Source of the DNA: a virus
Taxonomy: Duplodnaviria > Heunggongvirae > Uroviricota > Caudoviricetes
Virus record (IMG/VR): IMGVR_UViG_2541047705_000011
DNA: 42,469 nt
Direction: 5' to 3' (one strand)
Below are positions 3,369 through 31,157 of this stretch, in pieces (position 1 is the first letter of the stretch; every line of letters starts with the position of its first letter). Under the pieces are notes generated by a model. That model was not told where the DNA came from. It did no database searches and worked only from the letters and a program-made list of their open reading frames with translations. Position numbers and translations under genes: made by a program.

Positions 3369-3395
3369 CCCGCAATATTTTGCGGGCTTTTTTTT
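3369..3395 (+). terminator. Hairpin plus T8, canonical only in plus orientation, at tailspike 3' end
   Basis: CCCGCAA-TATT-TTGCGGG then C and T8; the T-run overlaps the tailspike stop codon; no plus-strand CDS upstream. Confidence 0.45.
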
Positions 3396-6300
3396 AACGT
3401 TCTTCCAGAGACTGAACCCGCTCTTTTATCTTATCCATTTCTCTGCGCTGCCATGCTGCCTCGATATAGAATAAGAGATCAGGTCTGACCCCCCATCTAG
3501 ATCCTGCTGGCGTTATTTCAACGCGCTCAATGATGTCTTCCATTACCATCACTGGATTATCATCCTCATCAACAATGATGCTCCCGTCATTATCAGTCAG
3601 CGGCATTTCCCTTTGGCCAGTAATGACGTCATCATATACTGCGGGATAATCGTCATAGCAAAGAAAGGCATAGCGGCATGTTGTGCTTTCTTCTTCCATG
3701 AGTCCGTGAGAAATAAGAACATCACGAAGTTGCTGCGCGATTACACCATGATGTATCCTCGCCCCTTCTTCCCCCTTTATAGCGACAGCGTTCAGCCATT
3801 TATAAGCGATATACCTGACGTCACCCCAGGCATCCAGCAATGCTTCGTCAGGAGAGACCGGCTCTGTCTTTAATGTTCCGTCACTGGTAACCACAGGATT
3901 GGAGCCAAGATAAACTGTCGAGAACCTGTTTCCCGGACCACCAAGAGCATTTACATTATCAAGATAAGGTTTAACATCTCCGTTCTCAAAAAGATGTTCG
4001 AGTGCGTTATATACCGCGCGACGTGGAGTACTGCTTCCGGAACCATGCAACGTTATCATTGCACCATCTGCTGAAGACGTTGTTTCACCTCCGCTAACGA
4101 TTAATCTCTGAGCGGTAACATCATCAGACGGTACTTTCTTCGCAATAATGGCGTAATTACCCTCAAGTTTGACTTCCGCGCGAACTTGTCCTGATGTACC
4201 TGCATGGACAGTCAGTGACTGGACGGCAACATCATCTGTGAAATCAACGGGTACAGGAACCGTCCTCACGCCTGACGTCGACATAAAAGTAGGAAGCGTT
4301 CTGTTAGGAGTGGCTCCGTAGACAAAATCCCTTGAAACAAATTCTTCCTGTTTAATTTTCACCCTGAAACAATACAAATCAGCCGGGTGACCATCGTGAA
4401 CATAAGGATATTTTCTGTTGTTATCCCCTATGCTCCATGGGTTTAGAAAGTCTTCCCCACCGAAAATGTAGTACAGCCAGTTGTCTTTGATACAAACTGA
4501 ACCAACACCAACCGCAGAGTTAACTATTCCGCCCTGATAAATCTGATCAGTAACATTAACCCACTCTACATTATCCAGACTCCACTCATTGACGTTAACT
4601 CTGGTCATAAATGTTCTTGGATAATTTCCTGCATAACGGTTATCAGGTTCTCCTCCTTCCCACTCACCAAATGCGCGCTCACTGCCAAAAATAATCAGCT
4701 CATCGCCAACTTTGGCAAAAGGAAGGTTTGAGTGATGAACATTATTTGGGAAGCGAAGAGAATTCCATGATGTACCTAAATCAGAGCTTCTGTGCAATGA
4801 ACTACCGGGTTGAGTACTTAATGTCCCCCTGGTCGTCAGATACAGAATGCCATCATAATATTTTACACATGGCTCAGATGCATTCGCCTCATATTCTGCA
4901 GGTATGCGTCTGCGAACAAAGCTACCAGGAGAACCGAAAGCATCAGAGAAATAGAGTATCCCAAGCTCGCGTGGACCAATATCACCATTATGGTAGCCAA
5001 CAGCAAAACTGTTATCGCTAATCGTCGCAAAACTGTGAATCTCAGTAACAGGAGTGCTTCCGTCAACAAAAGAAGGAATAGTTCCAAGACTGGTTTTTCT
5101 CCATGGTGACGAGTGAAATGATGTACCAAAACTCCAGTATCTACCCTCGTTATTCTGATCCACATCCTGGGTATTTTGCGTCGTAACTGTAAAAGTATTT
5201 TTATCAATAACAGTAGTCACCGTCATATTCCCGGTAACACCTGTAACACCAGAGTTTGAGAAGTTGACAAAATCACCAGCAAATAATCCGTGATCAGTAA
5301 TGCGAATATAAGCGACTTGCTGATTTGCTGCTTTCGTTATACCACCATAAACGCGAAGGCTGCGACTCATTGGGCGATCCCACAACTCTGCAACCTGCAG
5401 TTTATTTCCGCTCACGGTCCGCGTCTCAATTACAGCAAAAAGGCGATTTCTGACAACCCCCATACTCATGCAGTGATAGTTAACTGTGGGATAGTTTTCA
5501 TGTAAATCTGTAAGCCATTCCGGCGTTGTCCAGGTCTTCCCGTCATCTCCTGAGCGAACCCATGCAACATGGAGGTTATTTACACCATGGCGGTCTCCAG
5601 CCATAAAAGGCGCATAGATGACATTGTCATATACAAACGTTTTATCCTGCGTCCAGGCGTTGTACCACGGTGTATCTGTAATTTTAAATAACTCTCCCTG
5701 GATAAAATCTTCAGAAGCATAAAAAAGAGGCTGGCCCGGTATTCTCTCAAATAAAAAACGAGCATTTTTAAATCGACTGACATCCGGAAGAGTTGATACT
5801 TTAAAAGTAAGCCCTAATCCGTCAATTTTATAACCTGGAGATGAGGCTTCAAGGCACGCGCTTATTGCAGTGGAATCGTCATTTATACCATCACCAACAG
5901 CTCCAAAATCTTTGGGGCTAATAGCATCACGCATTTTATCCTGGAACGTTCGGTACACAGCCCCAGAACCATACTGAATAAACCAACCAAAACCACCAAC
6001 AACCCCGGCGATTGCAGCATCGACATAATTACGCATTGAGCGATTATTTACAGCGTCCTGCTCAAATGATGGATCTGCAAGGTTAGAAATTTTGTTTTGC
6101 TTTGCATCGTAATATTTTGCAAGCAAAGATGGTTTCATCAATGCACGTCTGAACCACCCAAAACATTGCTGGATCAGCATCGTCAGGTAGTCAAAGGCAT
6201 CTTCATGCACTTCGGGGAAAAATTTTCCCTGATTGCGAAGGTCTGTCTCCTGCACTACATCAAGCACACGATCTATCGTAATTCGCCATCCAGTAGCAAG

Positions 6301-6513
6301 CGGAGACGGAAGAACCACAGAACCGCCACTATAAGTGCCCGCCCCAGTTACCGTATAACCGGTATCCAGAACCAATTCTGTTACGTTCCCGTTCAGGTCA
6401 GACACCTGAACAACCAGGTCTGATTTTCTGAAAATTCGAAAAGTATACGGAAACGATGTCGTAACGCCGTTACCGGTGTATTCGTTGTGGTCAACTTCGG
6501 TTGAGACCGTCAT
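3394..6513 (-). CDS. Tailspike, endosialidase-like (endo-N-acetylneuraminidase) with C-terminal intramolecular chaperone
   Basis: 1039 aa; N-terminus has T7 tail-fibre-like pattern YxGxG..F..F..LVV; two Asp-boxes SGDDGKTW and SSDLGTSW; C-terminal SDGTLK and HHGVIAQQLRDV resemble the autocleaving chaperone of endosialidases. Confidence 0.7.
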   Translation of the reverse strand: MTVSTEVDHNEYTGNGVTTSFPYTFRIFRKSDLVVQVSDLNGNVTELVLDTGYTVTGAGTYSGGSVVLPSPLATGWRITIDRVLDVVQETDLRNQGKFFPEVHEDAFDYLTMLIQQCFGWFRRALMKPSLLAKYYDAKQNKISNLADPSFEQDAVNNRSMRNYVDAAIAGVVGGFGWFIQYGSGAVYRTFQDKMRDAISPKDFGAVGDGINDDSTAISACLEASSPGYKIDGLGLTFKVSTLPDVSRFKNARFLFERIPGQPLFYASEDFIQGELFKITDTPWYNAWTQDKTFVYDNVIYAPFMAGDRHGVNNLHVAWVRSGDDGKTWTTPEWLTDLHENYPTVNYHCMSMGVVRNRLFAVIETRTVSGNKLQVAELWDRPMSRSLRVYGGITKAANQQVAYIRITDHGLFAGDFVNFSNSGVTGVTGNMTVTTVIDKNTFTVTTQNTQDVDQNNEGRYWSFGTSFHSSPWRKTSLGTIPSFVDGSTPVTEIHSFATISDNSFAVGYHNGDIGPRELGILYFSDAFGSPGSFVRRRIPAEYEANASEPCVKYYDGILYLTTRGTLSTQPGSSLHRSSDLGTSWNSLRFPNNVHHSNLPFAKVGDELIIFGSERAFGEWEGGEPDNRYAGNYPRTFMTRVNVNEWSLDNVEWVNVTDQIYQGGIVNSAVGVGSVCIKDNWLYYIFGGEDFLNPWSIGDNNRKYPYVHDGHPADLYCFRVKIKQEEFVSRDFVYGATPNRTLPTFMSTSGVRTVPVPVDFTDDVAVQSLTVHAGTSGQVRAEVKLEGNYAIIAKKVPSDDVTAQRLIVSGGETTSSADGAMITLHGSGSSTPRRAVYNALEHLFENGDVKPYLDNVNALGGPGNRFSTVYLGSNPVVTSDGTLKTEPVSPDEALLDAWGDVRYIAYKWLNAVAIKGEEGARIHHGVIAQQLRDVLISHGLMEEESTTCRYAFLCYDDYPAVYDDVITGQREMPLTDNDGSIIVDEDDNPVMVMEDIIERVEITPAGSRWGVRPDLLFYIEAAWQRREMDKIKERVQSLEER

Positions 6514-6616: not shown

Positions 6617-6633
6617 ATTACCTTTCAGGTAAT
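6617..6633. promoter_or_regulatory. Operator-like palindrome ATTACC-TTTCA-GGTAAT (perfect)
   Basis: Perfect 6-bp inverted arms, 5-bp spacer; between tailspike start and the LexA-box gene. Confidence 0.6.
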
Positions 6634-6669: not shown

Positions 6670-6689
6670 TACTGTATAAATATACAGTT
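6670..6689. promoter_or_regulatory. LexA box (SOS operator)
   Basis: TACTGTATAAATATACAGTT, 18/20 to consensus TACTGTATATATATACAGTA (CTGT-N8-ACAG); 20 nt upstream of the 6709 start; possible -35 TTGATA overlaps. Confidence 0.75.
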
Positions 6690-6972: not shown

Positions 6973-6990
6973 AGGCCGCAAGAGCGGCCT
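6973..6990 (-). terminator. Hairpin terminator between convergent genes
   Basis: AGGCCGC-AAGA-GCGGCCT; T-rich on minus strand downstream; overlaps the 6989-7717 stop codon. Confidence 0.45.
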
Positions 6991-7717
6991 ATCGTTTCGC
7001 TTTGTGCTCGTCCCAGCACGTTTTGCACCATGCCATTAAGCCGTCCGCATTTTGATTATTAGGGTAAAAGCTGGTCCGTTTTCTGCGGACATTACAAATT
7101 GGGCACCACTTCATATGGCGTGTATTCTTTGGACCATCGAGACACCTTGCACACCACTTAGTCAATCCATCTGGATTTTTTGACGATTTCCGGAATTTGT
7201 CATATGGAAGGTTTATTCTGCATCGCAAACACTGCTTGCGGCCACTTGAAACTCTGTTAGCTGATTCTTCTTTTGGCGGCGATACAGAAGGTATTCTTGC
7301 TGGCTCTGATACTGCCTGAGGTGCTTTTTTAGATGACTGAGACGATATGTCATCACCAGGGAATCTTCCATGATATGCCGGACGCGTTGACACTCCAGGT
7401 GGAAGCTCAGCTGTAAACGGCTTTGGCTGAATCAGTTGCCTCTCTTTTGCTAACTCCTGCTGTTTATAATATGTCTGGATTACCGCACTATCATAAGCAG
7501 GAGGTACGGAAATATCAGGCGCGTTACCTCCAGTTTTTTGAAACTGAGTAGATGTGTGTTCTATCACCTGTGTACGACTAATCGTTACCTCCCCATCTTC
7601 GGTCTTTATCGTTTTGTTCTGATTAACGACCGTACGATCAGAGATCTTAGTCTTGTTCTGGTTGATAACGTAAATAATCACCGCAACCACACCAACAACT
7701 ATCCAGAAAACTTCCAT
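6989..7717 (-). CDS. Membrane-anchored protein with two C-terminal zinc-ribbon repeats, unknown function
   Basis: N-terminal TM helix, Pro/Ser-rich linker, then CLRC..x22..WCARC and CPIC..x21..WCKTC; RBS GAGGAAAAG. Confidence 0.6.
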   Translation of the reverse strand: MEVFWIVVGVVAVIIYVINQNKTKISDRTVVNQNKTIKTEDGEVTISRTQVIEHTSTQFQKTGGNAPDISVPPAYDSAVIQTYYKQQELAKERQLIQPKPFTAELPPGVSTRPAYHGRFPGDDISSQSSKKAPQAVSEPARIPSVSPPKEESANRVSSGRKQCLRCRINLPYDKFRKSSKNPDGLTKWCARCLDGPKNTRHMKWCPICNVRRKRTSFYPNNQNADGLMAWCKTCWDEHKAKR

Positions 7718-7829: not shown

Positions 7830-7846
7830 ATTACCTTTGCGGTAAA
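7830..7846. promoter_or_regulatory. Operator-like palindrome ATTACC-TTTGC-GGTAAA (11/12 arms)
   Basis: Same motif family; upstream of structured leader and BRO gene. Confidence 0.5.
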
Positions 7847-7958: not shown

Positions 7959-8112
7959 ATGTGTAAAGCGCACCTATTCTATGGTGGGCTGTGTGGGGGC
8001 ACCGAAAGGTGCGCCGGGTTCCTTTGTAGCCGGTAAGACCAACTCTGCACAGTTCACCACCATCTGATTGGTCTCAGCGGTGGTGATTAACCTAACTACA
8101 AAGGTGATCGCT

Positions 8113-8805
8113 ATGAATACCAAACCTTCCATCTTTTCCTTTGAGTCATCCTGCCAGATCCGTATGTTCATGATTGACGGAGAACCTTGGTTTGTCACCA
8201 AAGATGTGTGCAATGCTTTGAATATTGATGTTACACAAGCGAGAAAACTTGATAAAAAAGGCTGGAACAAAAAGGGGCTGTATTCAATACAGACCCCTGG
8301 TGGAATACAAGAACTATCCATCGTTTCAGAATCAGGTCTCTACATCCTTATTCTGCGTTGCAAAGAGGCAATGACTGAGGGAACGAGAGCATTCAGATTT
8401 CTTGAATGGGTTACAGGTGAGGTTCTTCCTCAGATCCGCCGCACCGGAAGTTACATTAAAAACTCGCTCCCGCAGGAAGAACGCATAAAGATGGTTGCCG
8501 ACCAGGTAGCCAACGCCACGGCGTCAGCAGTAATGCAGGCGATGAAGATAGAGAACAAAACCTACAGTGCCCCACTGAAGCCCGGCTACCGTAGCCTGAT
8601 TCATTCGCCGTCTGGTGTTCTCGGCCTGACGGAGAACTCACTGCTGATGAATCTGCTGAACCAGTTACAGGACGACGGGCACGACGTATCGGGCGCGGCG
8701 GCGGAGCTGACCACCATGTTCTGCTACATCGTCGGTGTGAGCAAATGCCTGCGTGATATCCAGACCCACGCGGAGTACATCAACGACAAGGCAGGGTTCT
8801 TCTGA
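8113..8805 (+). CDS. BRO-N domain antirepressor
   Basis: BRO-N motif FSFESSCQIRMFMIDGEPWFVTKDVCNAL; RBS AAGGTGA; start trimmed to ATG 8113; C-terminal domain homologous to the 6709-6966 protein. Confidence 0.75.
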   Translation: MNTKPSIFSFESSCQIRMFMIDGEPWFVTKDVCNALNIDVTQARKLDKKGWNKKGLYSIQTPGGIQELSIVSESGLYILILRCKEAMTEGTRAFRFLEWVTGEVLPQIRRTGSYIKNSLPQEERIKMVADQVANATASAVMQAMKIENKTYSAPLKPGYRSLIHSPSGVLGLTENSLLMNLLNQLQDDGHDVSGAAAELTTMFCYIVGVSKCLRDIQTHAEYINDKAGFF

Positions 8806-8950: not shown

Positions 8951-9583
8951 ATGAGAACAAATACAACAAGAAAAGCGATGCCATACATTATCCCAGAAGC
9001 AGATTTCGATAGAAAACTGAACATGTCTGAGAAGAACACTAGTCACACCGAAAGCTACTTAGCGAAAGGTGTGGTTGATTTCGTTCTTCCGGGATTCACA
9101 ACACCTTATGGTTATCGCCTTGTAAAATCTTGTAATGGCGATCATTACAGAATGATTACTACCAGCGATACTCCAGAAACGGTGTATGCGGTTAAGTTAA
9201 TCTTTCGGGAAGATATCGTCGAAGCCAAAAGAACATGTACGCAGATCATGGTATGGCGTACGCCTAATGTTATTCATGACCGTGCTGTTCATGGTTTGCC
9301 TCAGATTTTTTTTCAGTTCTTCCTAGAGCAATATGCGATCGTTGTATCTGATGAGCAACAAACAATCGATGGGAGAAGATTCTGGGAAAGAATGATTTCT
9401 TGGGCTATAAACACCCCGGGATATAATGTATACGTTTCAGATGGCTCTGAAGAAGATAGACCTCTTAGCTTCATGACATCATGGGATGATTTCTATAGCC
9501 AGTGGGCTGATTTCTGTTGGGGCAGTGATAAAGATGTGCATACCCACAGACTACTGGTTATAAGCAAAGATAAACTGCATTAA
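8951..9583 (+). CDS. Hypothetical protein (210 aa), accessory/moron gene, no recognisable family
   Basis: ORF track; RBS GGGAGG; AT-rich; flanked by operator-like site upstream and terminator downstream. Confidence 0.6.
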   Translation: MRTNTTRKAMPYIIPEADFDRKLNMSEKNTSHTESYLAKGVVDFVLPGFTTPYGYRLVKSCNGDHYRMITTSDTPETVYAVKLIFREDIVEAKRTCTQIMVWRTPNVIHDRAVHGLPQIFFQFFLEQYAIVVSDEQQTIDGRRFWERMISWAINTPGYNVYVSDGSEEDRPLSFMTSWDDFYSQWADFCWGSDKDVHTHRLLVISKDKLH

Positions 9584-9588
9584 TAGAA

Positions 9589-9609
9589 GCCCGCAGCGCG
9601 GGCTTTTTT
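9589..9609 (+). terminator. Rho-independent terminator
   Basis: GCCCGC-AGC-GCGGGC followed by T6. Confidence 0.75.
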
Positions 9610-9681
9610 GTGGACGAAACAAAAGTCAGTGCTACACTCATTGACGCCACATTGAGGTGGCTTATAGATGGAAATTTCACA

Positions 9682-9843
9682 ATGAAAAAAGCATTTGCTG
9701 CACTGTTCGTTTTGTTGTCTCTGGTAGCTTCAACTCAGGCCTTTGCCGGTCGTTGTCAGCACGACAGCGATACTGCCGCTGACGGCTCCCGCTGCGGTGG
9801 GCGTTCTGCGGATTCCCGCCCGGGTGGCGGTGGCATTCGTTAA
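9682..9843 (+). CDS. Small secreted Gly/Arg-rich peptide (53 aa)
   Basis: Start at MKKAFAALFVLLSLVASTQAFA (signal peptide); putative promoter TTGACG-N16-TATAGA upstream; ORF-track N-terminal extension discarded. Confidence 0.45.
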   Translation: MKKAFAALFVLLSLVASTQAFAGRCQHDSDTAADGSRCGGRSADSRPGGGGIR

Positions 9844-9849
9844 AAACAA

Positions 9850-9865
9850 GGCCGCGAAAGCGGCC
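9850..9865 (-). terminator. Hairpin GGCCGC-GAAA-GCGGCC, terminator for lipoprotein gene (minus), weaker for plus
   Basis: GNRA-type loop; on minus strand followed by TTGTTTTTA. Confidence 0.55.
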
Positions 9866-9866
9866 T

Positions 9867-9878
9867 GTGACATGTCAC
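9867..9878. repeat. Perfect 12-bp palindrome GTGACATGTCAC (copy 1 of 3)
   Basis: Overlaps lipoprotein stop codon; identical copies at 28357-28368 and 30808-30819. Confidence 0.8.
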
Positions 9879-10255
9879 GCAACGCAATTATTACCGCGCC
9901 ATGTAACATTTTTAATAATCTTATCAGCACCAAACTCAACGTAAACAGAGCAACTGAAATGGAGTGTATAACCGCCATCAGTTGTTGCGTATGTGTTTGA
10001 ATATATAGTATTACCAATTAGATTAGACGTAGTATTATACGTTGTGGTTTGTGGTACGTTATAACTACCAGAGCTTGAGTAAACATACACTCTGTTTCCA
10101 TCTGGAGATGTAAGCTCTCCCTGAGGATACCCCCACTGCTGAACCATTGCGTCTATACTCTGCCCGCGCCACGTAAGCATATTTCTTTCAAACTGTGCAA
10201 CTGACTGGCATCCAACGAGAAGCATAAATCCAAAAATCAAAAATACTTTTCTCAT
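9875..10255 (-). CDS. Lipoprotein (126 aa), candidate superinfection-exclusion/moron protein
   Basis: Start MRKVFLIFGFMLLVGC (lipobox); RBS AGGGG; Thr/Ser/Tyr/Asn-rich mature part; IS1 lies 66 bp upstream of its start. Confidence 0.6.
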   Translation of the reverse strand: MRKVFLIFGFMLLVGCQSVAQFERNMLTWRGQSIDAMVQQWGYPQGELTSPDGNRVYVYSSSGSYNVPQTTTYNTTSNLIGNTIYSNTYATTDGGYTLHFSCSVYVEFGADKIIKNVTWRGNNCVA

Positions 10256-10375
10256 AATTACCCCTATCATGGAAAAACAGCACCAATCCACAAATTAACT
10301 AGTTATTTTATTATTCTTCCGGTGATGCTGCCAACTTACTGATTTAGTGTATGATGGTGTTTTTGAGGTGCTCCA

Positions 10376-10651
10376 GTGGCTTCTGTTTCTATCAGCTGTC
10401 CCTCCTGTTCAGCTACTGACGGGGTGGTGCGTAACGGCAAAAGCACCGCCGGACATCAGCGCTATCTCTGCTCTCACTGCCGTAAAACATGGCAACTGCA
10501 GTTCACTTACACCGCTTCTCAACCCGGTACGCACCAGAAAATCATTGATATGGCCATGAATGGCGTTGGATGCCGGGCAACCGCCCGCATTATGGGCGTT
10601 GGCCTCAACACGATTTTACGTCACTTAAAAAACTCAGGCCGCAGTCGGTAA
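10376..10651 (+). CDS. insA: IS1 InsA
   Basis: Sequence recognised as IS1 InsA ([32 protein letters not shown]...). Confidence 0.95.
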
Positions 10652-11073
10652 CCTCGCGCATACAGCCGGGCAGTGACGTCATCGTCTGCGCGGAAATGGA
10701 CGAACAGTGGGGCTATGTCGGGGCTAAATCGCGCCAGCGCTGGCTGTTTTACGCGTATGACAGTCTCCGGAAGACGGTTGTTGCGCACGTATTCGGTGAA
10801 CGCACTATGGCGACGCTGGGGCGTCTTATGAGCCTGCTGTCACCCTTTGACGTGGTGATATGGATGACGGATGGCTGGCCGCTGTATGAATCCCGCCTGA
10901 AGGGAAAGCTGCACGTAATCAGCAAGCGATATACGCAGCGAATTGAGCGGCATAACCTGAATCTGAGGCAGCACCTGGCACGGCTGGGACGGAAGTCGCT
11001 GTCGTTCTCAAAATCGGTGGAGCTGCATGACAAAGTCATCGGGCATTATCTGAACATAAAACACTATCAATAA
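10570..11073 (+). CDS. insB: IS1 InsB reading frame (expressed as InsAB' fusion by -1 frameshift)
   Basis: Sequence recognised as IS1 InsB; slippery TTAAAAAACTC upstream in the InsA frame. Confidence 0.9.
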
Positions 11074-11117
11074 GTTGGAGTCATTACCTATTCTTCCGAA
11101 CAATACAATTCCGAATA

Positions 11118-11240
11118 CTACAAAGCCGAACCATGCCGCTGCACGCAACAGAGATTCCAATTGAAACCCATTTTTATCAAAATGTATGAATAGCATAAAA
11201 ACGCTGCACATATTAGTACAATAAAAGTTATTTGAACCAT
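11118..11240 (-). CDS. Small hydrophobic peptide (40 aa) with strong RBS, candidate membrane peptide
   Basis: AAGGAG 5 nt before ATG, directly after stop of upstream virion gene; MVQITFIVLICAAFLCYSYILIKMGFNWNLCCVQRHGSAL; below the ORF-track size cutoff. Confidence 0.4.
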   Translation of the reverse strand: MVQITFIVLICAAFLCYSYILIKMGFNWNLCCVQRHGSAL

Positions 11241-11251
11241 CATATCTCCTT

Positions 11252-13726
11252 TTATTGCGGAGTGACATCCTGTGGTCGCCACCAGTATGTCTGGTTAAAC
11301 TCTTTCTTCGAACGTTGCTCCATTTTACGCAAATAGCCTGGTGAAAAATACTCCTGCATCTGGTTAAAGATCATGTGATCGAGAGCCGCCTTCAAGTACC
11401 AGAGATTCGCACCAGGCATCAAACCTTTCCCCAGCTTCACCAGATCACCACCAGTCTGCTCACTCTTCCCTTCCACAGCATTTAACGGTATGCCCTGAGC
11501 AATCTTCACTACGTCATCAACCAGACCAGCTACCGGGCCAAGCATCGACGCCAGCGCGCCGCTTCCGTACCTAGTGTGATCTGACAATAAAAAGTCACCG
11601 TAAAGGCCAAGACCACCACCTTTCAGTAGAGCACCAAGCCAGAATTTTGCGGCATCTTCTCCTGTCATCTCTCGAGAATTACGACCAGACGCAAGGTCGT
11701 TAAGTTGCTGCGACAAAGCGCCAAGAATGGTCGTACTGGCAATAAACGTCGCAATATATGCCGCACGCCCACCAGCAGACGGCATACCCATAGCGCGTGA
11801 CCAGTGACGCATAACAACCGAGATAGGGAACGATTTAAACAGGAAAACACTTCTCGTTAATTCACCTTTCCATGTTCCACGCTGAATACCAGAACCGGTT
11901 ATCAGTTGCTCACGTGCTCCCGGTGTAATAACAGCCATATCAACTTCTTCAGTTACGGCACCGAGCAGTTTACGCATTGCCTCAAATTTCACGCGTTCAG
12001 GCTCACCAAGATGTTTAACTGCTGAATCAGGGATACGCATAATGCTTTCCGGTGTCAGCATCGTATTATTACCGTTCCCCCAGTCCTCCTGTTTCGCCAG
12101 CTTCCATACGCTCCAGTCTGTGTCAGTAATCCCTTTGCTTTTCAGGATACGAAAATCAGAGTCATCGAGGCTACGAAGGTCTGGTGTCCGTGACACTACT
12201 TCTCCCAGGCTTCCCATCATGGTTACGCCATAGGCGCGCTTGTGCGCATCTGACCATGCTGTAAGCCCACTGGCACGCATTACCGCCGTTGCCGCCCAAC
12301 GAGACACTGACGGCCCCATATTATCCATCGCCCAGCGGTTAACGCTGCCAAGTAGAGATTCCATCGCCAGACCAGCGCGGCGCGCCCGCGCAAGTTCTGT
12401 ACGGTTCGTTGGGTCCATAGCTTCAAGCTGGTTGCGGAATAACTGGTTCATTGGAAGGTTGGTAACCTTCGCAGACAGATACATGGTTCCAAGATCAGAG
12501 AACGATGACAGCAACGCGGATCCGAGTCTGCTGGCAACCAGCCAGTTGCGGATATTGTCAGACCATCGCGCGATGTGCGGATTCGCTACAGGCTGTGTCT
12601 TTCCGGAAATAAAGTTGTACAGATTCTCTGTGTTGTTCGCCAGCCGCTCGACTTTACCGGTTTTACTCGGGTTAGCTGTTGCCGTTTCTGCCTTCACCTG
12701 ATCAAGAAGAGAGCGGAAAACATGATCGGGGTTTGGGCCATATGTTTCCACCAGTGCAATATCTTTACTGATACCTTCCAGGTGACCGACCATGATTTCC
12801 CATAGAGAGCGATCGCCATAAAGTTGCTGATATTGCAGATAGGAATCTGCATCTTTGAAATGTATCTGTCGTGATGCATTACCACGGTTAGCACGTGCGC
12901 CGGAAATTCGCATTCCGGTATCAGTAAGCTTATTCAGCCCACCAGTAGCGATCGTGTTATAAGCCTCTCCAAGAAATGAAGACAACTCGGCATCGTTCAT
13001 CAGTTGTCCATCGGCTCGGATATAATATTTGCGATCCAGCTTACCTATAACATCGCTAACCCACTTATCCTTTGATACTGCCCCAACCTTTTCCATAGAA
13101 TGATGTTGAGGGATCCCCCAGTTTTCGAGATAGCCAATGTCCCCACCAGCATCATTAAACCGGCGGCGCAGCAGCTCTGTAACTTCTCTCCACGCCTTAG
13201 CACCGTTTCTTGCTTTAGCATTGCCAGTATTTTGCCCCCGCATTTCATATACCAGGTCACGTACGCCCGCTTCATCTTCAAACAGACCAAAAAAGCGAGG
13301 ATCAACTGCTTCGAATGCCTCCTGCAATTGACTCAATGCATAATCACGAGTGGCTTTTGTTCTGGACTCAACAGAGAGGAAATTCGATTTACCGTCTGCA
13401 TTAAAAGCAATAGTACGGTTAAGAGCGCCAAGTTTCCCATCAGCCCCTTGATAGCTATTGATAAATTTATCCAATCTCTGACGCGCGGCTATAGTGAGAG
13501 CCACACGACGTTTCTTTAATGCCGCTTCTCGCTGTAATTCTTCAGATGCCAATTGTGCTGCTCGATATAGCCGCTCTGATTCGGAAAGTTGTCGCCACGA
13601 CATAGGGTCATCACGAGCAATGGAGCGCATATTTCGATAAATGCGGTCTTCAATGTTCTGTATTTCTCGCGCCGTTAACATGCGCTGCGCCGCCTGCTGA
13701 ACCGCTTGTATACATTCCTGTCTCAT
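11252..13726 (-). CDS. Large internal virion/ejection protein (824 aa)
   Basis: ORF track; last large gene of virion operon, in the position of podovirus injection proteins. Confidence 0.6.
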   Translation of the reverse strand: MRQECIQAVQQAAQRMLTAREIQNIEDRIYRNMRSIARDDPMSWRQLSESERLYRAAQLASEELQREAALKKRRVALTIAARQRLDKFINSYQGADGKLGALNRTIAFNADGKSNFLSVESRTKATRDYALSQLQEAFEAVDPRFFGLFEDEAGVRDLVYEMRGQNTGNAKARNGAKAWREVTELLRRRFNDAGGDIGYLENWGIPQHHSMEKVGAVSKDKWVSDVIGKLDRKYYIRADGQLMNDAELSSFLGEAYNTIATGGLNKLTDTGMRISGARANRGNASRQIHFKDADSYLQYQQLYGDRSLWEIMVGHLEGISKDIALVETYGPNPDHVFRSLLDQVKAETATANPSKTGKVERLANNTENLYNFISGKTQPVANPHIARWSDNIRNWLVASRLGSALLSSFSDLGTMYLSAKVTNLPMNQLFRNQLEAMDPTNRTELARARRAGLAMESLLGSVNRWAMDNMGPSVSRWAATAVMRASGLTAWSDAHKRAYGVTMMGSLGEVVSRTPDLRSLDDSDFRILKSKGITDTDWSVWKLAKQEDWGNGNNTMLTPESIMRIPDSAVKHLGEPERVKFEAMRKLLGAVTEEVDMAVITPGAREQLITGSGIQRGTWKGELTRSVFLFKSFPISVVMRHWSRAMGMPSAGGRAAYIATFIASTTILGALSQQLNDLASGRNSREMTGEDAAKFWLGALLKGGGLGLYGDFLLSDHTRYGSGALASMLGPVAGLVDDVVKIAQGIPLNAVEGKSEQTGGDLVKLGKGLMPGANLWYLKAALDHMIFNQMQEYFSPGYLRKMEQRSKKEFNQTYWWRPQDVTPQ

Positions 13727-19053: not shown

Positions 19054-21524
19054 CAGAATCCCCCAACAGTAAGGCGAGGAATAACGGCAAGAACAGACAG
19101 CGGCAACGGGTCAAGCTGACGGATTTTTACACGTCCGTTTTTGCCCCAGTTACTGTCCAGTTTCACTTCTACTTTTCCGGTAGCATCATCAACAGGATCA
19201 TCGTAGAACTCGAATTCACGCTGTGGATATTCGTACCATTTACCGCCGGGCGTAGTCGCCCAGATGCCGCGACTGGCATTCACAACCAGAGTAACGGACG
19301 GGATCACCTGTTTTTTGTCCAGCAGCGTTTCCTGTCCGTTAATGTTGATATCCAGTGTTTCGAATTCAGCAGTTATTGGCAGGCCGATGTGCACTACAGC
19401 CCCCGGTGATTCCAGCGTGACGGCACCTCCGGAAACCACTTTCTGTGGTTCCACGTTCGCATCAGAGAGGATGTTTACGGTCTGGCCTTCAAGATGAGAC
19501 AAGCCGCCAAATGTCCGGCGCGCCATCTGCCAGTTCGTGGTGGCCACATTCCTGAGGGATGGCGGGACGTTCCTGTTAGCACGAACCACTACAGCGGTAT
19601 TGCTGGTTACAGAAATAATGTCGCAACGTAATTCTTTTGACACCTCATCGCCAGTATCAGGATCAGTTCCGGTATAAGGGAACTGTAGTTGCGCGCCGAC
19701 ATCACTACTGGTGAAGTACGCACCACCAGAAACACTGATTGTATATTCCGCGCGGTAATCCCATTCGCCAGAACCACCAGTGATGGTCATCGTTCTGTCA
19801 GACGTATTTCTTCCATCATAGCTAAGGCCAGAATCAACAAAGAAAGCATCTTCATCGCTGGTAAATAAACGGCTGGACAGTCGCTCGATGTATCTCACTG
19901 TTTGCCCGTTAACGGTTCGGTTAATGACGAAATACACCGCATCTTCATTGCCTTCGCTGATACTGCATGTGCTTTCATATTTTCCGGTACTGGACTGTGG
20001 TGCCCATGCAAAAACCTGTTGATCACGCAAATAGGTCATCACCAGTAATTTACCGTCATCACGAATGCAGAAGGCGCTGGAGTAAGGGACTATCGAGAAG
20101 CACCAGTCAACAATGCTGTGCTTCTGAAAAAGATGATTGGCAAGGATGGTCAGGTCGTTCCCCTGATAGCCGTCAACATCGAATGAGTAGGCCAGATCAC
20201 GGACAACGCTGCCTTTCTCCTGGACGAACAGAGCAATATTCGCCACGGCAATTGGCGGGACGTTGCTTGAGCCATTTGATCCCTGAGAGCTGAATGCAAA
20301 TGATGATGGGGTTAACACTTTGTTCTGGTCGCCGGTGATGACGTACTCACCTCCGGAAGTCAGCGCCACCAGAGAACCAACATCAATCAGGTGGCGGATC
20401 TCATTAACCTGACGTCCGGCATAGGTGTAGATAATTCTGTCGTCATCCTGCGTAGGATTGCTTTTGCCAAAATCCTTATAATCCCCGGTACGGCTGGCCC
20501 AGATAGTCTGAGGAAACGCAGTCGATGCGGCGAAGTAAAGACGTTGTTGATAATAAACAACAGTGCCAGGATAACCATTAACACTGTTCCAGGCATATTT
20601 AGCCCATTTATAGCTGGCATTATCCTCGCCCACGACCTGCGAAGGGATATAGGAAATCACCTCGGCAGTTGCAGTAGTTCCATTTGCAGCAGTGATACGG
20701 GCAATGCCAAAACCACTGTGCAGATATTCCCACTCAATGCCAGTATCATCATCACCGGATCCGCCCCAGCCATCCCATGATGTGCCTTCTGTATGCGAAG
20801 GGCGCAAAGTACCTGTTTTGCCTGCTGTAACGGCGCGATAGTAGTTACTGTCTGCACGGCGAATATCGCCAATCGACGTACTCTTACTGGTTTCCCATAC
20901 CGGCACAGAATCCACTGCAGGCTGTTCCAGATAGAACAATTTGCCTACCTGCTCCGCGCCAAAAATAGAGGCGCTTGCCGTTAGCGTAATTGTCCCGGTG
21001 CTGGCGCTGGCATAAACCGTCACTGACTCGTCAATATTGATATCTTCAAATGGCCCGTTCTTCGTTACCACATCAACCAGTTGCCAGTTGTCATGCGCAT
21101 AGCGGCGCAACTCTTTCGGCGGGTATGCCGGATGAACCAGCGTAAGCACGTCTGCGCTTTGCGTGAATTTAATTCGGAACAGATCGGCTTCAGTATATGG
21201 CGTGGCAATTTCATAAATAACATTGCTGCTGTTCAGCACCAACGCACCATCTTTGATAACGCGCATGTACTGGTGTCCAAACTCCAGAGCATAAGTCTGA
21301 ACCGTCGAGAACTGGAACGGGATCAGGCGGCATTTCCGATTTGGGTATTTGGCGGCACCGACAAAACGCGTACCAGGTCGATTCTCAACGCCGCCATACT
21401 GCCGCACGATAAAGTTATCGCACTTGCGCAATGCCACCTGGTACTTAGCCATGTCAATACGCCCGTACAACGACGGTCCAATCTCACCACCGGCAAAGCT
21501 GGGCTGGATCCAACTGATAGCCAT
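19053..21524 (-). CDS. Tail tubular protein B-like (nozzle)
   Basis: 823 aa directly downstream of tubular-A-like gene; size and position match podovirus tail-tube protein B. Confidence 0.55.
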   Translation of the reverse strand: MAISWIQPSFAGGEIGPSLYGRIDMAKYQVALRKCDNFIVRQYGGVENRPGTRFVGAAKYPNRKCRLIPFQFSTVQTYALEFGHQYMRVIKDGALVLNSSNVIYEIATPYTEADLFRIKFTQSADVLTLVHPAYPPKELRRYAHDNWQLVDVVTKNGPFEDINIDESVTVYASASTGTITLTASASIFGAEQVGKLFYLEQPAVDSVPVWETSKSTSIGDIRRADSNYYRAVTAGKTGTLRPSHTEGTSWDGWGGSGDDDTGIEWEYLHSGFGIARITAANGTTATAEVISYIPSQVVGEDNASYKWAKYAWNSVNGYPGTVVYYQQRLYFAASTAFPQTIWASRTGDYKDFGKSNPTQDDDRIIYTYAGRQVNEIRHLIDVGSLVALTSGGEYVITGDQNKVLTPSSFAFSSQGSNGSSNVPPIAVANIALFVQEKGSVVRDLAYSFDVDGYQGNDLTILANHLFQKHSIVDWCFSIVPYSSAFCIRDDGKLLVMTYLRDQQVFAWAPQSSTGKYESTCSISEGNEDAVYFVINRTVNGQTVRYIERLSSRLFTSDEDAFFVDSGLSYDGRNTSDRTMTITGGSGEWDYRAEYTISVSGGAYFTSSDVGAQLQFPYTGTDPDTGDEVSKELRCDIISVTSNTAVVVRANRNVPPSLRNVATTNWQMARRTFGGLSHLEGQTVNILSDANVEPQKVVSGGAVTLESPGAVVHIGLPITAEFETLDININGQETLLDKKQVIPSVTLVVNASRGIWATTPGGKWYEYPQREFEFYDDPVDDATGKVEVKLDSNWGKNGRVKIRQLDPLPLSVLAVIPRLTVGGF

Positions 21525-25040: not shown

Positions 25041-25333
25041 TCCTGTTCACTGGCCTCTTTGGCCATCTTCAAATACTGTTCAGGGCAATGCGCCATAACG
25101 CGCTGAAACAGTTCCAGCGCCAGATTGCGTTGCCCCTCATTAAATGCCATTGCCATAGCATCCATCGGTGAGATAGCGGAAAACACACGGCCTTTCTCCA
25201 GCACCGACCAGACAACGCGACGCCCCTGTTCACTGCTCATGACAAAGCGAATGTCATCAATTTCACGCTGTGCCATGTCACGTTGCTTACGGGCGTTTTC
25301 TTCTTTCAGTTGATCGTCTTCATAATCTGTCAT
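25037..25333 (-). CDS. Small head-assembly-module protein (98 aa)
   Basis: ORF track; overlaps portal stop and scaffold start. Confidence 0.45.
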   Translation of the reverse strand: MTDYEDDQLKEENARKQRDMAQREIDDIRFVMSSEQGRRVVWSVLEKGRVFSAISPMDAMAMAFNEGQRNLALELFQRVMAHCPEQYLKMAKEASEQE

Positions 25334-27657: not shown

Positions 27658-27734
27658 GTGGCATTAGCTCAGTCGGACAGAGCAACCGCCTTCTAAGCGG
27701 TTGGTCGCAGGTTCGAATCCTGCATGCCACGCCA
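27658..27734 (+). tRNA. Phage-encoded tRNA-Arg (anticodon UCU)
   Basis: 77-nt cloverleaf: acceptor GTGGCAT/ATGCCAC, D-stem GCTC/GAGC, anticodon stem ACCGC/GCGGT with loop CTTCTAA, T-arm GCAGG-TTCGAAT-CCTGC, discriminator G, encoded CCA. Confidence 0.9.
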
Positions 27735-27932: not shown

Positions 27933-28352
27933 ATGAAAACAATTGATATGTTGGCTAAGTATCTAAATGAATGGCCATTAAAATATTCTCGTATCGTTCA
28001 GGCTGAAGACTGCGTTTTTTATGGCGTTTTTGCTGGTAATGAAATGCATTACGAAGTAATTCAGAGTGAGGGACTGGCCGGGTTAACTCTTAGCGAAGAC
28101 CATGGTACTAGCGTTACGTTCCATGACTGGATAACAGCACAACGTTCTGAAATGGAAAAAGGCGATGTGTTTGATATTTCTCGCGCTGTTTACGCTAAAG
28201 CAAAAAGTGATAATGATTACATGAGCGAACACTTATACAACATGAAGTTACAATGCCTGCATGCGGCGCTTATTCAGAATGGGTACTTCGATAAAACAAG
28301 TGCCATCAATATTGCGGAAGCCATCAACACTGGATTTAATGCCATTAAGTAA
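27933..28352 (+). CDS. Hypothetical moron protein (139 aa), no recognisable family
   Basis: ORF track; only plus-strand gene inside the minus-strand late region; RBS AAGGTGAG; terminator downstream. Confidence 0.6.
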   Translation: MKTIDMLAKYLNEWPLKYSRIVQAEDCVFYGVFAGNEMHYEVIQSEGLAGLTLSEDHGTSVTFHDWITAQRSEMEKGDVFDISRAVYAKAKSDNDYMSEHLYNMKLQCLHAALIQNGYFDKTSAINIAEAINTGFNAIK

Positions 28353-28356
28353 CACC

Positions 28357-28368
28357 GTGACATGTCAC
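28357..28368. repeat. Perfect 12-bp palindrome GTGACATGTCAC (copy 2 of 3)
   Basis: 5 nt after moron stop codon, before its terminator. Confidence 0.8.
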
Positions 28369-30807: not shown

Positions 30808-30819
30808 GTGACATGTCAC
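30808..30819. repeat. Perfect 12-bp palindrome GTGACATGTCAC (copy 3 of 3)
   Basis: Overlaps stop codon of the 30816-31157 gene. Confidence 0.8.
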
Positions 30820-31157
30820 ACTATTAATTTCGTTTCATGCCAGCCTTTGGTCACCCAGCATTGCGAGTCACCATTACACGGGCATGAATTAACTGGAACT
30901 CTCTCGCCGCACTTACCGCAACGTTTTCTGCTGATCGATTTTATACGCCCGCGCACGCGTGCATCATCCTGGCGGATCAGTAACGCTATATACTCACCAA
31001 ATTCGTAAGGTGCACGCCCGGGGCGACGCGTGGCGCAGTTCCGCTCCAGCATTTCAATTTCCTGAGCATCAAGCACAATTTCCAGCTTACGCACACCAGA
31101 TGCAGCTTGTCTGGCTCTCTGAGCGGCTTTGCGCTCTGCTGCTGATTTAGCCATCAA
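30816..31157 (-). CDS. Small basic protein with N-terminal RHH-like segment and C-terminal Cys cluster (zinc-ribbon-like)
   Basis: 113 aa; AERKAAQRARQAASGVRKLEIVLDAQEIEMLE then CGKCGERVPVNSCPCNGDSQC. Confidence 0.5.
   Translation of the reverse strand: MMAKSAAERKAAQRARQAASGVRKLEIVLDAQEIEMLERNCATRRPGRAPYEFGEYIALLIRQDDARVRGRIKSISRKRCGKCGERVPVNSCPCNGDSQCWVTKGWHETKLIV

Follow-up and report, generated by a model that had tools for sequence, protein, structure and literature searches.

The DNA analyzed here, hereafter the window, is a stretch of 42,469 nucleotides from an epsilon15-like (Uetakevirus-type) prophage, the nearest phages of which are, by megablast and annotation, phiV10, TL-2011b and ZX5. 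Two small genes converge in it, as an earlier note on this DNA had stated: a plus-strand gene for a 53-aa pre-peptide (9682..9843) and a minus-strand gene for a 126-aa lipoprotein (9875..10255). Between them are a stem-loop with a GAAA loop of the GNRA type (9849..9866) and a 12-bp palindrome, GTGACATGTCAC (9867..9878), both also present as the note described; positions 9 to 11 of the palindrome (tca) are the TGA stop codon of the lipoprotein gene. Beyond the lipoprotein gene lie an IS1 element (10321..11088), an unannotated minus-strand open reading frame for a 41-aa hydrophobic peptide (11118..11243; MMVQITFIVLICAAFLCYSYILIKMGFNWNLCCVQRHGSAL) with the ribosome-binding site AAGGAG, and the minus-strand gene for an 824-aa virion or ejection protein (11252..13726), which is a homologue of phiV10 p20 and the last large gene of the late operon before the lipoprotein gene. 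The 41-aa frame begins 8 nt past the 824-aa gene, in the same slot as epsilon15 gp18 and phiV10 p21. In every phage examined, the slot after the ejection genes is occupied by membrane or exported proteins (epsilon15 gp18; phiV10 p21; 98-aa and 66-aa proteins in Cronobacter; a Rap1a-family protein and a signal-peptide protein in Klebsiella).

The studied region is the cargo slot of the prophage, with the ejection-protein operon on one side and the antirepressor/tailspike region on the other, and both converging genes are within this phage accessory region. In P22, the sieA/immI slot likewise holds one or more accessory envelope genes after the ejection genes, followed by the antirepressor region and the tailspike gene. 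The analogy is positional only, and SieA, an inner-membrane protein, has no homology to the 53-aa or the 126-aa product. Both products are already members of PHROG families; Pfam and NCBIfam gave nothing informative and PADLOC no match for either of them, and an Rfam search over 9400-10400 returned nothing meaningful, its sole match being a chance Trp_leader (E 0.4).

The 53-aa product consists of a predicted 22-aa Sec signal peptide (MKKAFAALFVLLSLVASTQAFA) and a 31-aa mature Cys-loop peptide (GRCQHDSDTAADGSRCGGRSADSRPGGGGIR). Judged from the sequence, it has all the parts of a substrate of Sec and signal peptidase I: the n-region MKK, a 13-residue hydrophobic core (AFAALFVLLSLVA), the c-region STQ and a cleavage site A-F-A/G with small residues at -3 and -1. 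The mature part contains two cysteines, C25 and C38. The family phrog_14503 matches the product at 2e-40, and 57 homologues were found in Enterobacterales. The AxA site and the two cysteines are conserved across the family, and of 27 aligned homologues nearly all obey the -3/-1 rule, as do most of the relatives that bear the Cys-loop module described below. Among the homologues the mature part is nearly invariant (pN/pS 0.06-0.19, with pS 0.5-0.8) and the signal peptide is variable. The gene is real and under purifying selection; a 77-aa version of the frame starting at GTG was ruled out by the starts of the homologues.

We found that the mature part corresponds to a minimal version of a Cys-loop module, one that is widespread and absent from Pfam. 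The module, with the pattern (AxA) followed by G[NP]C-x4-5-D-x-A-x-DGSRCG-x-R-[SA]-[AS]-xxRPGG, occurs in 367 cluster representatives. A hydrophobic segment lies at most 35 aa upstream of it in 73 of 106 module-bearing proteins, and an AxA-type junction usually directly precedes it. Our full-text literature search gave no prior description of the motif. The AF2 model of the peptide is of low confidence (pLDDT 65). An Excalibur or EF-hand-like calcium site, to which the peptide bears only a loose resemblance, was rejected for want of HMM support.

The peptide is most likely exported by the Sec pathway and cut after AFA, and cleavage would yield a peptide of 31 aa, periplasmic or secreted, with a single disulfide (C25-C38) holding it together. 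Another reading is that the helix stays uncleaved, so that the product is not released and, anchored in the membrane, modulates a sensor or transporter of the inner membrane as MgrB-type peptides do. The names of the family are in its favor, since NCBI calls it 'transmembrane anchored protein' and the PHROG name also says membrane-anchored or membrane-associated, and the arrangement of a single helix followed by two conserved periplasmic cysteines would suit such a peptide. Furthermore, the module lies between or after transmembrane segments in some relatives; a few larger proteins carry it after a second hydrophobic segment, and thus the N-terminal helix of the 53-aa product could be an uncleaved anchor. 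However, nearly all homologues have A, S or V at -3 and A at -1, and conservation extends to the polar c-region. The helix is also the least conserved part (pN/pS 0.11-0.33, against 0.06-0.19 in the mature part), although this order is reversed in the Klebsiella comparison. We consider the anchored form unlikely and prefer cleavage and release.

Upstream of the peptide gene, an intrinsic terminator on the plus strand (9585..9609; GAAGCCCGC-AGC-GCGGGCTTC followed by a T-run) stands after a 210-aa open reading frame (8951-9583). It folds at -15.3 kcal/mol (z -3.4), the same hairpin precedes the peptide gene in TL-2011b and Klebsiella, and it insulates the gene from the upstream Bro-N/antirepressor genes. 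A plus-strand promoter-like site was read from the sequence at 9641..9668 (TTGACG, 16 nt, TATAGA), which the consensus scan missed because it ends in a base other than T; in distant homologues its conservation is poor, and it is therefore only a putative promoter. The Shine-Dalgarno sequence of the gene is weak. With a terminator on each side, the peptide gene would be a self-contained moron. It resembles the morons of lambdoid phages, which are accessory genes that have a promoter and terminator of their own within a late region, in being a single, opposite-strand, terminator-bracketed gene that is variably present and occurs in several phage types, but differs from them in that its promoter matches the consensus weakly and is not conserved. 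The lipoprotein gene differs from lambdoid morons in another way, being coupled to an operon and not autonomous.

The 126-aa product begins with MRKVFLIFGFMLLVG, after which the lipid-bearing form would start CQS; its lipobox is LVGC, with the cysteine at position 16 and Gln at +2. A 138-aa version with a GTG start was rejected, as 21 homologues start at the MRK/MKK position. The lipobox stands at the end of the signal peptide, as in bacterial lipoproteins, and C16 is invariant in 22 sequences of the family, in which two further cysteines are conserved as well; 13 of the 22 match Pfam LPAM_1 (best E 1e-5). Retention in the inner membrane is disfavored by Gln at +2, and the lipoprotein is, by this prediction, probably located in the outer membrane. 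Compared with all 34 E. coli copies, the window copy has a single base change (A for G at 10200), which results in A19V.

Gene spacing in relatives indicates that the ejection-protein (late) operon of epsilon15-like phages ends with the lipoprotein gene: the latter lies 9 nt past the 824-aa homologue in Salmonella, a 48%-identical relative has zero gap to the preceding gene, and in Raoultella and a 52%-identical relative the genes overlap. The order on the minus strand would then be the 824-aa protein, the 41-aa membrane peptide, the lipoprotein, the palindrome and the terminator, and the lipoprotein would most likely be lipidated, sent to the outer membrane and made late alongside the ejection proteins. 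In the window, however, IS1 separates the lipoprotein gene from its operon. The element was called by comparison with the empty site in NZ_CP070111; it is 768 bp long, lies on the plus strand, contains insA/insB and terminal inverted repeats, and is flanked by a 9-bp target duplication (TATTCTTCC) at 10312-10320 and 11089-11097. A search of 5426 complete E. coli genomes and of species-representative genomes did not find the junction. At its border, a hybrid promoter-like site on the minus strand (10305..10334) faces the lipoprotein gene, with the -35 hexamer TTGGCA in the IS1 end and the -10 hexamer TAAAAT in phage DNA. It is the best promoter-like match in the region (10 of 12), and by reading we found no -35-like hexamer at the spacing of the hybrid site in the uninterrupted sequence. 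Thus, IS1 would cut the lipoprotein gene off from readthrough of the late operon and offer it a hybrid promoter instead.

The predicted fold of the lipoprotein is weakly BamE/BLIP-like, with Foldseek E-values that are not significant. The fold class (BamE/OsmE/BLIP-like, of SmpA_OmlA type) includes the type VI secretion immunity protein BtiO; the SmpA_OmlA HMM (PF04355) matched none of the 22 family members at E<=1, and the lipoprotein differs from BamE-type proteins in a longer sheet (about five strands over residues 46-122) and in its two extra invariant cysteines. Such folds are typical of protein-binding or inhibitor modules, and protection of the envelope is therefore the most likely role. 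By this model the lipoprotein would shield the envelope of the infected or lysogenic cell from related phages or the enzymes that they eject, that is, its role would most likely be superinfection exclusion. The note had suggested receptor-blocking lipoproteins. T5 Llp and Cor of phi80, N15 and HK022 are superinfection-exclusion lipoproteins that block FhuA, and the 126-aa product is like them a small phage lipoprotein, predicted to be in the outer membrane and encoded beside adsorption or ejection genes. Receptor blocking nevertheless found no support here: neither product is similar to Cor, Llp or any PHROG of known function, the predicted fold class of the lipoprotein differs from theirs, and the tailspike of the phage is an endosialidase, and thus its primary receptor is the K1 capsule and not an outer-membrane protein.

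Alternatively, the lipoprotein may be an immunity or inhibitor protein directed against an enzyme that degrades peptidoglycan or the envelope, either one carried by the ejection proteins of related phages (as for T4 Spackle) or a type VI secretion effector. The fold matches are weak and the fold is generic; a Pfam SLT domain was not found in the window's own ejection proteins at E<=0.001, and PADLOC, as mentioned above, matched nothing. We regard this reading as rather improbable, and superinfection exclusion is kept as the favored role of the lipoprotein.

The hairpin between the two genes has a 7-bp stem with six GC pairs and the core GGCCGC-GAAA-GCGGCC (9850-9865). On the minus strand it reads AGGCCGCTTTCGCGGCCT and then TGTTTTTAAC, with a U-tract at 9848-9841 (tail UGUUUUUAAC), and is an intrinsic (Rho-independent) terminator; downstream of the stem the plus strand has TGTGACATGTCACG (UGUGACAUGUCACG), without a T-run, and the structure is not a bidirectional terminator with a U-tract on both strands. 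The terminator scan gave a match on the minus strand only, with no plus-strand site reported here. Because the T-run is on the minus strand only, the hairpin is a terminator for the lipoprotein gene and the late operon and at best a weak one for the peptide gene, contrary to the proposal that the two genes share it. The phiV10 record annotates the equivalent hairpin as a terminator, and the hairpin would thus serve as the intrinsic terminator of the late operon. Relatives keep the stem and vary the loop (GAAA, CTTC, TTCG, AATA or TTTC); on these grounds the GNRA loop was rejected as a functional feature.

The palindrome at 9867..9878, copy (c), is one of three exact copies in the window. Copy (b) (28357..28368) is 4 nt past the stop codon of a plus-strand cargo gene for a 139-aa product, just before the terminator hairpin of that gene and downstream of terL; copy (a) (30808..30819) is upstream of terS and overlaps the TGA stop codon of a minus-strand gene for a 112-aa predicted regulator (30816..31154; phrog_536, the epsilon15 gp49/N15 gp46 family). 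About ten perfect 12-nt palindromes of any kind are expected in 42 kb, so that a single one is unremarkable; three exact copies of this particular 12-mer are far beyond chance, since dividing the window length by 4^12 gives an expectation of about 0.0025. In epsilon15, phiV10 and Tyrion the palindrome is found at the same three positions as in the window (the counterparts of copy (b) are at 2142, 2262 and 2702, respectively), and these four phages come from E. coli, Salmonella and Enterobacter hosts. The junction of copy (c) also has the motif in TL-2011b, Cronobacter, Salmonella and the Klebsiella phage ST11-OXA245phi3.2, besides phiV10, epsilon15 and Tyrion.

In loci selected by homology to the regulator, the motif stands at the regulator stop codon in 73 of 80, and GTGACNNGTCAC occurs 133 times in 850 kb of such loci, against 0.8 expected; it is within 200 nt after terL in 55 of 73 IMG/VR loci. 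The unrelated myovirus ZF40 has the motif at its regulator stop codon and two further copies. N15 has three copies of its own variant, GTGACTGGTCAC, one of which overlaps the stop codon of gene 46 in the same register, and phiKO2, Kpn74 and YDC107_1 have this variant at the regulator stop codon as N15 does. The center of the motif is TG in all three N15 copies and in these three N15-like phages, and AT in the epsilon15-type phages examined. In some other phages the association loosens: the nearest motif of a Vibrio phage, GTGACACGTCAC, is about 226 nt downstream of the regulator gene, an Aeromonas phage has a sequence only loosely similar to the motif at the regulator stop codon, and in Yersinia the motif was not found in the 3.3-kb stretch around the gene. 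In epsilon15-type phages the copies are found where transcription units end, with a terminator next to them in nearly all cases, and at the borders of cargo exchange; relative to late transcription, motif and hairpin come in a different order at site (b) than at site (c), and site (a) in the window has no terminator. The palindrome is apparently a conserved regulatory motif that has gone undescribed: our full-text search retrieved no prior description of it, nor of morons in epsilon15 or phiV10.

Several known kinds of site were considered for the palindrome and rejected. The CI operators of epsilon15 annotated in RefSeq are ATTACC-N5-GGTAAT, a separate motif that is present in the window too. 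The consensus sequences of LexA and CRP sites do not fit in spacing or sequence, and the sole perfect-looking LexA box in the window (6672) is away from the palindromes. A pac or terminase site was discarded because the copies in N15 and ZF40 are far from the terminase genes.

The motif accompanies the phrog_536 gene and differs in sequence between clades of the protein, as in a set of operators; on the basis of this co-location the palindrome would most probably be the DNA operator of the 112-aa gp49/gp46-family protein, of which copy (c) would be one of three genome-wide cis-elements. By reading of its sequence, the N-terminal half of the regulator is basic and ribbon-helix-helix-like and its C-terminal half is Cys-rich. 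Pfam gave no match for it that reached the gathering score and the PDB gave none, and nearly all of its 625 homologues are called 'hypothetical protein' or 'phage protein' in their sources. The idea that the gp49 family acts as a general late activator or antiterminator is weakened because N15 and ZF40 carry their own Q-like proteins. Like the stoperators of mycobacteriophage L5 and the epsilon15 CI operators, the palindromes are several operator-like copies scattered at the ends or starts of transcription units in a temperate phage; they differ in having three copies only, in sequence (from the CI operators) and in that this putative operator is linked to a protein family without Pfam or PDB match.

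One possible explanation other than an operator is that the palindrome is a recombination joint for the exchange of cargo modules, kept identical within the genome by concerted evolution. Mosaic breakpoints do fall at the edge of the motif: Cronobacter prophages share an identical peptide gene, near-identical hairpins and the motif and diverge one or two bases after ...GTCAC, and a comparison of Salmonella with Klebsiella gives a like breakpoint on the other side. Variable cargo borders all three sites, and the TGA within the motif repeatedly serves as the stop codon of the abutting gene. However, any essential cis element between variable modules would give an identical pattern of breakpoints, and a joint leaves unexplained that one copy has stayed with the stop codon of a single gene in podo-, myo- and siphoviruses whose proteins are as little as 35% identical, and that ZF40 and N15 have copies inside coding regions. 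A joint thus seems a doubtful account of the motif, and an operator remains the preferred one.

The two genes that flank the hairpin and copy (c) do not behave as a pair. Among 5426 complete E. coli genomes, the peptide gene is present in 450 and the lipoprotein gene in 34, and they are side by side in about 29 (K1 strain O7:K1 CE10, APEC O1 and IAI39 are among those listed), so that the peptide gene adjoins the lipoprotein gene in 29 of the 34 genomes that have the latter. The partner varies between phages: the peptide gene converges on ant instead in TL-2011b, and faces other small envelope genes or none in Cronobacter and Klebsiella. In the slot beside the lipoprotein gene where the peptide gene would be, no gene is called or annotated in Salmonella, ST11-OXA245phi3.2 and Raoultella. 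Such a pattern lacks the consistent co-occurrence of a functional pair or operon-like unit. The peptide and the lipoprotein genes are independent and encode unrelated exported accessory proteins; the hairpin and the palindrome are not private to them: the former terminates the late operon, and the latter is one of the copies of a motif found across the genome. With regard to export, what stood of the note is that both products have textbook export signals, the key residues of which are conserved in both families, and export itself is predicted from these. It is very improbable that they form a two-part, Llp- or Cor-like receptor-blocking envelope modifier co-regulated through hairpin and palindrome: although both have export signals, are neighbors in most lipoprotein-bearing E. 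coli genomes, and the N15 cor gene near tail genes shows that such lipoproteins occur in tail modules, over 400 E. coli genomes and phages of other types have the peptide gene but lack the lipoprotein gene, the two are on opposite strands in different transcription units, the resemblance to Cor and Llp is lacking, and epsilon15, phiV10 and Tyrion have the hairpin and the motif but neither gene.

Taken as a whole, we think it fairly probable that the locus consists of independent genes, a late terminator, an operator-like palindrome and a lipoprotein gene cut off by IS1. More tentatively, and with the odds against it, GTGACNNGTCAC may be the phrog_536 operator that controls termination, readthrough or roadblocking, and at the same time the 31-aa peptide the minimal form of an undescribed secreted module. 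If so, three sites per genome would govern these processes at the ends of transcription units, in a circuit common to podo-, myo- and siphoviruses of Enterobacterales that would also mark the edges of cargo swaps, and the peptide would be the smallest member of a widespread family of secreted Cys-loop modules.

As the pair that it was framed to be, the locus is ordinary prophage cargo. The 12-bp motif together with the regulator family offers a cheaply testable handle on how transcription units of epsilon15-, N15- and ZF40-type phages are delimited or connected, and the motif may also show where such temperate phages accept cargo. About 8% of complete E. coli genomes have the peptide gene, and hundreds of protein clusters contain its module without annotation; therefore, a function for the peptide would annotate many proteins. 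Because its gene has a fixed place at the end of the ejection operon, the lipoprotein is a good candidate for a new function in superinfection exclusion or immunity, which would concern K1-capsule and O-antigen-specific podoviruses and is of relevance to phage therapy against K1 strains.

The peptide gene (MKKAFAALFVLLSLVASTQAFAGRCQHDSDTAADGSRCGGRSADSRPGGGGIR, 53 aa) occupies 9682-9843 on the plus strand, and the lipoprotein gene (MRKVFLIFGFMLLVGCQS, ending in GNNCVA, 126 aa) occupies 10255-9875 on the minus strand. Between the two ORFs lie the hairpin GGCCGC-GAAA-GCGGCC (9850-9865; stem of 7 bp, counting A9849 and T9866) and the palindrome GTGACATGTCAC (9867-9878), which includes the lipoprotein stop codon. 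Thus, in the sequence of 9400-10600 and the ORF list of the window, we found every element that the earlier note had listed; its interpretation was borne out only in part. The locus sits between the minus-strand ejection-protein operon, with an 824-aa gene ending at 11252, and a plus-strand group consisting, in order, of a Bro-N antirepressor-like gene (8068-8805), a 210-aa ORF and a terminator. In megablast, the region matches epsilon15/phiV10-like E. coli prophages. The tailspike (3394-6513, minus strand, 1039 aa) is a complete endosialidase with an intramolecular chaperone domain, and therefore the phage targets the K1 capsule.

Export of both products, as had been proposed, is plausible. 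However, the proposal that they form a pair is not supported: the peptide gene is present in 450 of 5426 complete E. coli genomes versus 34 for the lipoprotein gene, and the entire 701-bp block in about 29. Elsewhere the neighbours differ. The peptide gene converges on ant in TL-2011b, faces membrane proteins (98 aa or 66 aa) or no gene in Cronobacter, faces a Rap1a-family protein and a signal-peptide protein in Klebsiella, and resides in a different phage type in Pectobacterium. The neighbours of the lipoprotein gene in Salmonella, Klebsiella phage ST11-OXA245phi3.2 and Raoultella are other genes, with no ORF of the size of the peptide gene among those called or annotated. The peptide and lipoprotein genes are therefore not a pair, and together they are ordinary prophage cargo. 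Among the genomes listed with both genes, the only record name stating a K type is that of O7:K1 CE10, a K1 strain.

In the terminator scan, only the minus strand gave a hit (hairpin plus T-run); read on the plus strand, the stem has no U-tract behind it, and therefore the idea of a shared terminator was only half right. In relatives, a GC-rich stem and then a T-run are kept on the late-operon strand, while the loop varies: GAAA in E. coli, Klebsiella and one of four Cronobacter loci (CTTC in the other three), TTCG in a contig from IMG/VR, AATA in epsilon15 and TTTC in Tyrion. The hairpin is conserved as a terminator, itself an ordinary one, and the GNRA loop singled out previously has no special standing.

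The lipoprotein is a member of phrog_3716 and has 37 homologue clusters. In the family alignment, the lipobox Cys, two more Cys and the motifs WGYP, GNxVYVY and GNNCV are invariant. The AF2 model (pLDDT 84) has two helices and then a five-stranded sheet. Fold searches gave weak matches to phage SmpA/OmlA-domain proteins in BFVD and non-significant ones to BamE chains in the PDB (Foldseek), and the SmpA_OmlA HMM matched none of the family members. The synteny is the most informative evidence. The lipoprotein gene begins 9 nt past the 824-aa homologue in Salmonella, follows the preceding gene with zero gap in a 48%-identical relative, and overlaps it in Raoultella and a 52%-identical relative; it is therefore the final gene of the late ejection-protein operon rather than an autonomous moron. 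Small membrane or exported proteins fill this slot in every relative examined. An example is a Klebsiella pneumoniae epsilon15-like prophage (CP089325, 6238-7094), with a Rap1a-family (T6SS immunity) protein and a signal-peptide protein of 134 aa. The receptor-blocking function suggested in the earlier note is not supported; the protein belongs to neither the Cor nor the Llp family. The slot is a positional analogue of P22 sieA, and the putative fold class is frequent in protein inhibitors and in T6SS immunity proteins; the lipoprotein may still act in exclusion or immunity.

Between the 824-aa gene (11252-13726, minus strand) and the lipoprotein gene is a 219-bp spacer, into which an IS1 (10321-11088) has inserted, duplicating 9 bp of target, TATTCTTCC (whole unit, 10312-11097); none of the 5426 complete E. 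coli genomes has this junction. The insertion should block late-operon readthrough into the lipoprotein gene. Its end supplies TTGGCA 18 nt 5' of a native TAAAAT, facing the lipoprotein gene, and this hybrid resembles a promoter more closely than any other site in the region; by our own reading, the uninterrupted sequence has no -35 at that spacing from TAAAAT. The only base difference from the 34 E. coli lipoprotein copies is at 10200 (A here versus G in all of them), giving Ala19Val, three residues past the predicted lipidated Cys. The spacer also holds a hydrophobic 41-aa ORF (11118-11243, minus strand) with a strong ribosome-binding site, which starts 8 nt past the 824-aa gene, in the slot where epsilon15 has gp18 and phiV10 has p21, and is unannotated here and in NZ_CP070111, where the IS1 site is empty.

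The peptide (phrog_14503; 57 homologue clusters, in Enterobacterales; NCBI name 'transmembrane anchored protein') has a variable signal peptide, a conserved A/S/V-x-A junction and an almost invariant mature part with two Cys. When its codons were compared with those of the Cronobacter, Klebsiella, Pectobacterium and IMG/VR homologues, the mature part had pS of 0.5-0.8, pN of 0.05-0.14 and pN/pS of 0.06-0.19, values showing that the gene is real and evolves under purifying selection. Among 1.8 billion cluster representatives, a profile search found 367 proteins at E<=0.001. The mature core, G[NP]C-x4-5-D-x-A-x-DGSRCG-x-R[SA][AS]-xxRPGG, occurs in stand-alone pre-peptides of 47-70 aa and also, as a module at the N or the C terminus, in larger extracytoplasmic proteins, of which one has an SH3_3 domain. 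The module is absent from Pfam and NCBIfam, and AF2 gave no confident fold; the peptide belongs to an uncharacterised secreted-peptide family. Its gene has a moron layout, with a strong terminator (9585-9609) and a weak promoter-like site before it and the hairpin after it. A short inverted repeat, gCCACattgagGTGGc (9647-9662), lies 25-40 nt 5' of the ATG; the stem pattern, with different sequence, is kept in Klebsiella, Cronobacter, Pectobacterium and IMG/VR homologue loci (L004, L005, L006 and L046), which makes the repeat a possible leader or operator element.

The palindrome has three exact copies in the window (9867-9878, 28357-28368 and 30808-30819) and one with a single mismatch (25270-25281). 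Exactly three copies are found at equivalent sites in epsilon15 (19517, 2142 and 39612) and Tyrion (20377, 2702 and 41755); phiV10 has copies at 19493 and 2262 and a third, with one mismatch, at the junction of the record ends. The sites are 3' of a predicted regulator gene and upstream of terS, 3' of terL beside a reverse-oriented cargo gene, and 3' of the ejection operon. Each copy in epsilon15 and Tyrion is at most about 25 nt from an intrinsic terminator, as are two of the three in the window. A tRNA-Arg (anticodon TCT; 27658-27734, plus strand) lies between the terminase and portal genes and adjoins a 139-aa cargo ORF (27933-28352, phrog_4846).

In each epsilon15-type phage examined, one copy overlaps the TGA stop of this gene, whose product is a 112-aa predicted regulator (phrog_536, epsilon15 gp49). 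The 625 homologues of this protein are almost all named 'hypothetical protein' or 'phage protein' in their sources, and it matched no Pfam family with a score reaching the gathering threshold and nothing in the PDB. The motif is at the regulator stop in 73 of 80 IMG/VR loci chosen by homology to the regulator, and in 850 kb of loci so chosen GTGACNNGTCAC was observed 133 times versus 0.8 expected. It is also at the stop in contigs with 46-75% identical regulators, which had been chosen for the presence of the motif itself. In the unrelated myovirus ZF40 it lies immediately 3' of the gp22 homologue, with two further copies. N15 (gp46, 35% identical) has three copies of a variant, GTGACTGGTCAC, one overlapping the stop of gene 46 in the same register, and phiKO2, Kpn74 and YDC107_1 share this arrangement. 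No such motif occurs within the 3.3-kb stretch read around the Yersinia regulator gene. The nearest one in a Vibrio phage, GTGACACGTCAC, is about 226 nt downstream, and an Aeromonas phage has only a loosely similar sequence at the stop. Two IMG/VR loci with about 48% identical regulators (L040 and L104) have, instead of GTGACATGTCAC, the inverted repeat TGGTTGAC-N8-GTCAACCA and an extra half-site, possibly a change of specificity.

The most economical reading of these sequences is that the palindrome is the operator of the regulator family. The main rival is a recombination joint; since mosaic breakpoints fall at the motif edge or within a base or two of it, this role may coexist with that of operator. 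The palindrome is not an epsilon15 CI operator, as those have a different sequence, ATTACC-N5-GGTAAT, dispersed in the window at 6617, 7737, 34152 and 37195, with imperfect copies at 7830, 30529, 34090 and 36483, some sites being near the tailspike and terS promoter regions. The window also has a near-consensus LexA box, CTGTATAAATATACAG (6672-6687), upstream of a gp19-like gene. Between this LexA-controlled gene and the Bro-N gene is that of a 242-aa protein (6989-7717, minus strand; phrog_6762) with C-terminal endonuclease VII/Lar-like zinc-finger matches.

The searchable literature yielded no account of the motif. As a putative dispersed operator system, the motif-and-regulator set resembles the L5 stoperators and the epsilon15 CI sites; however, both its protein family and its sequence are new. 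The interest of the locus lies in this conserved motif and its regulator, together with the unannotated peptide module and the operon-terminal lipoprotein.
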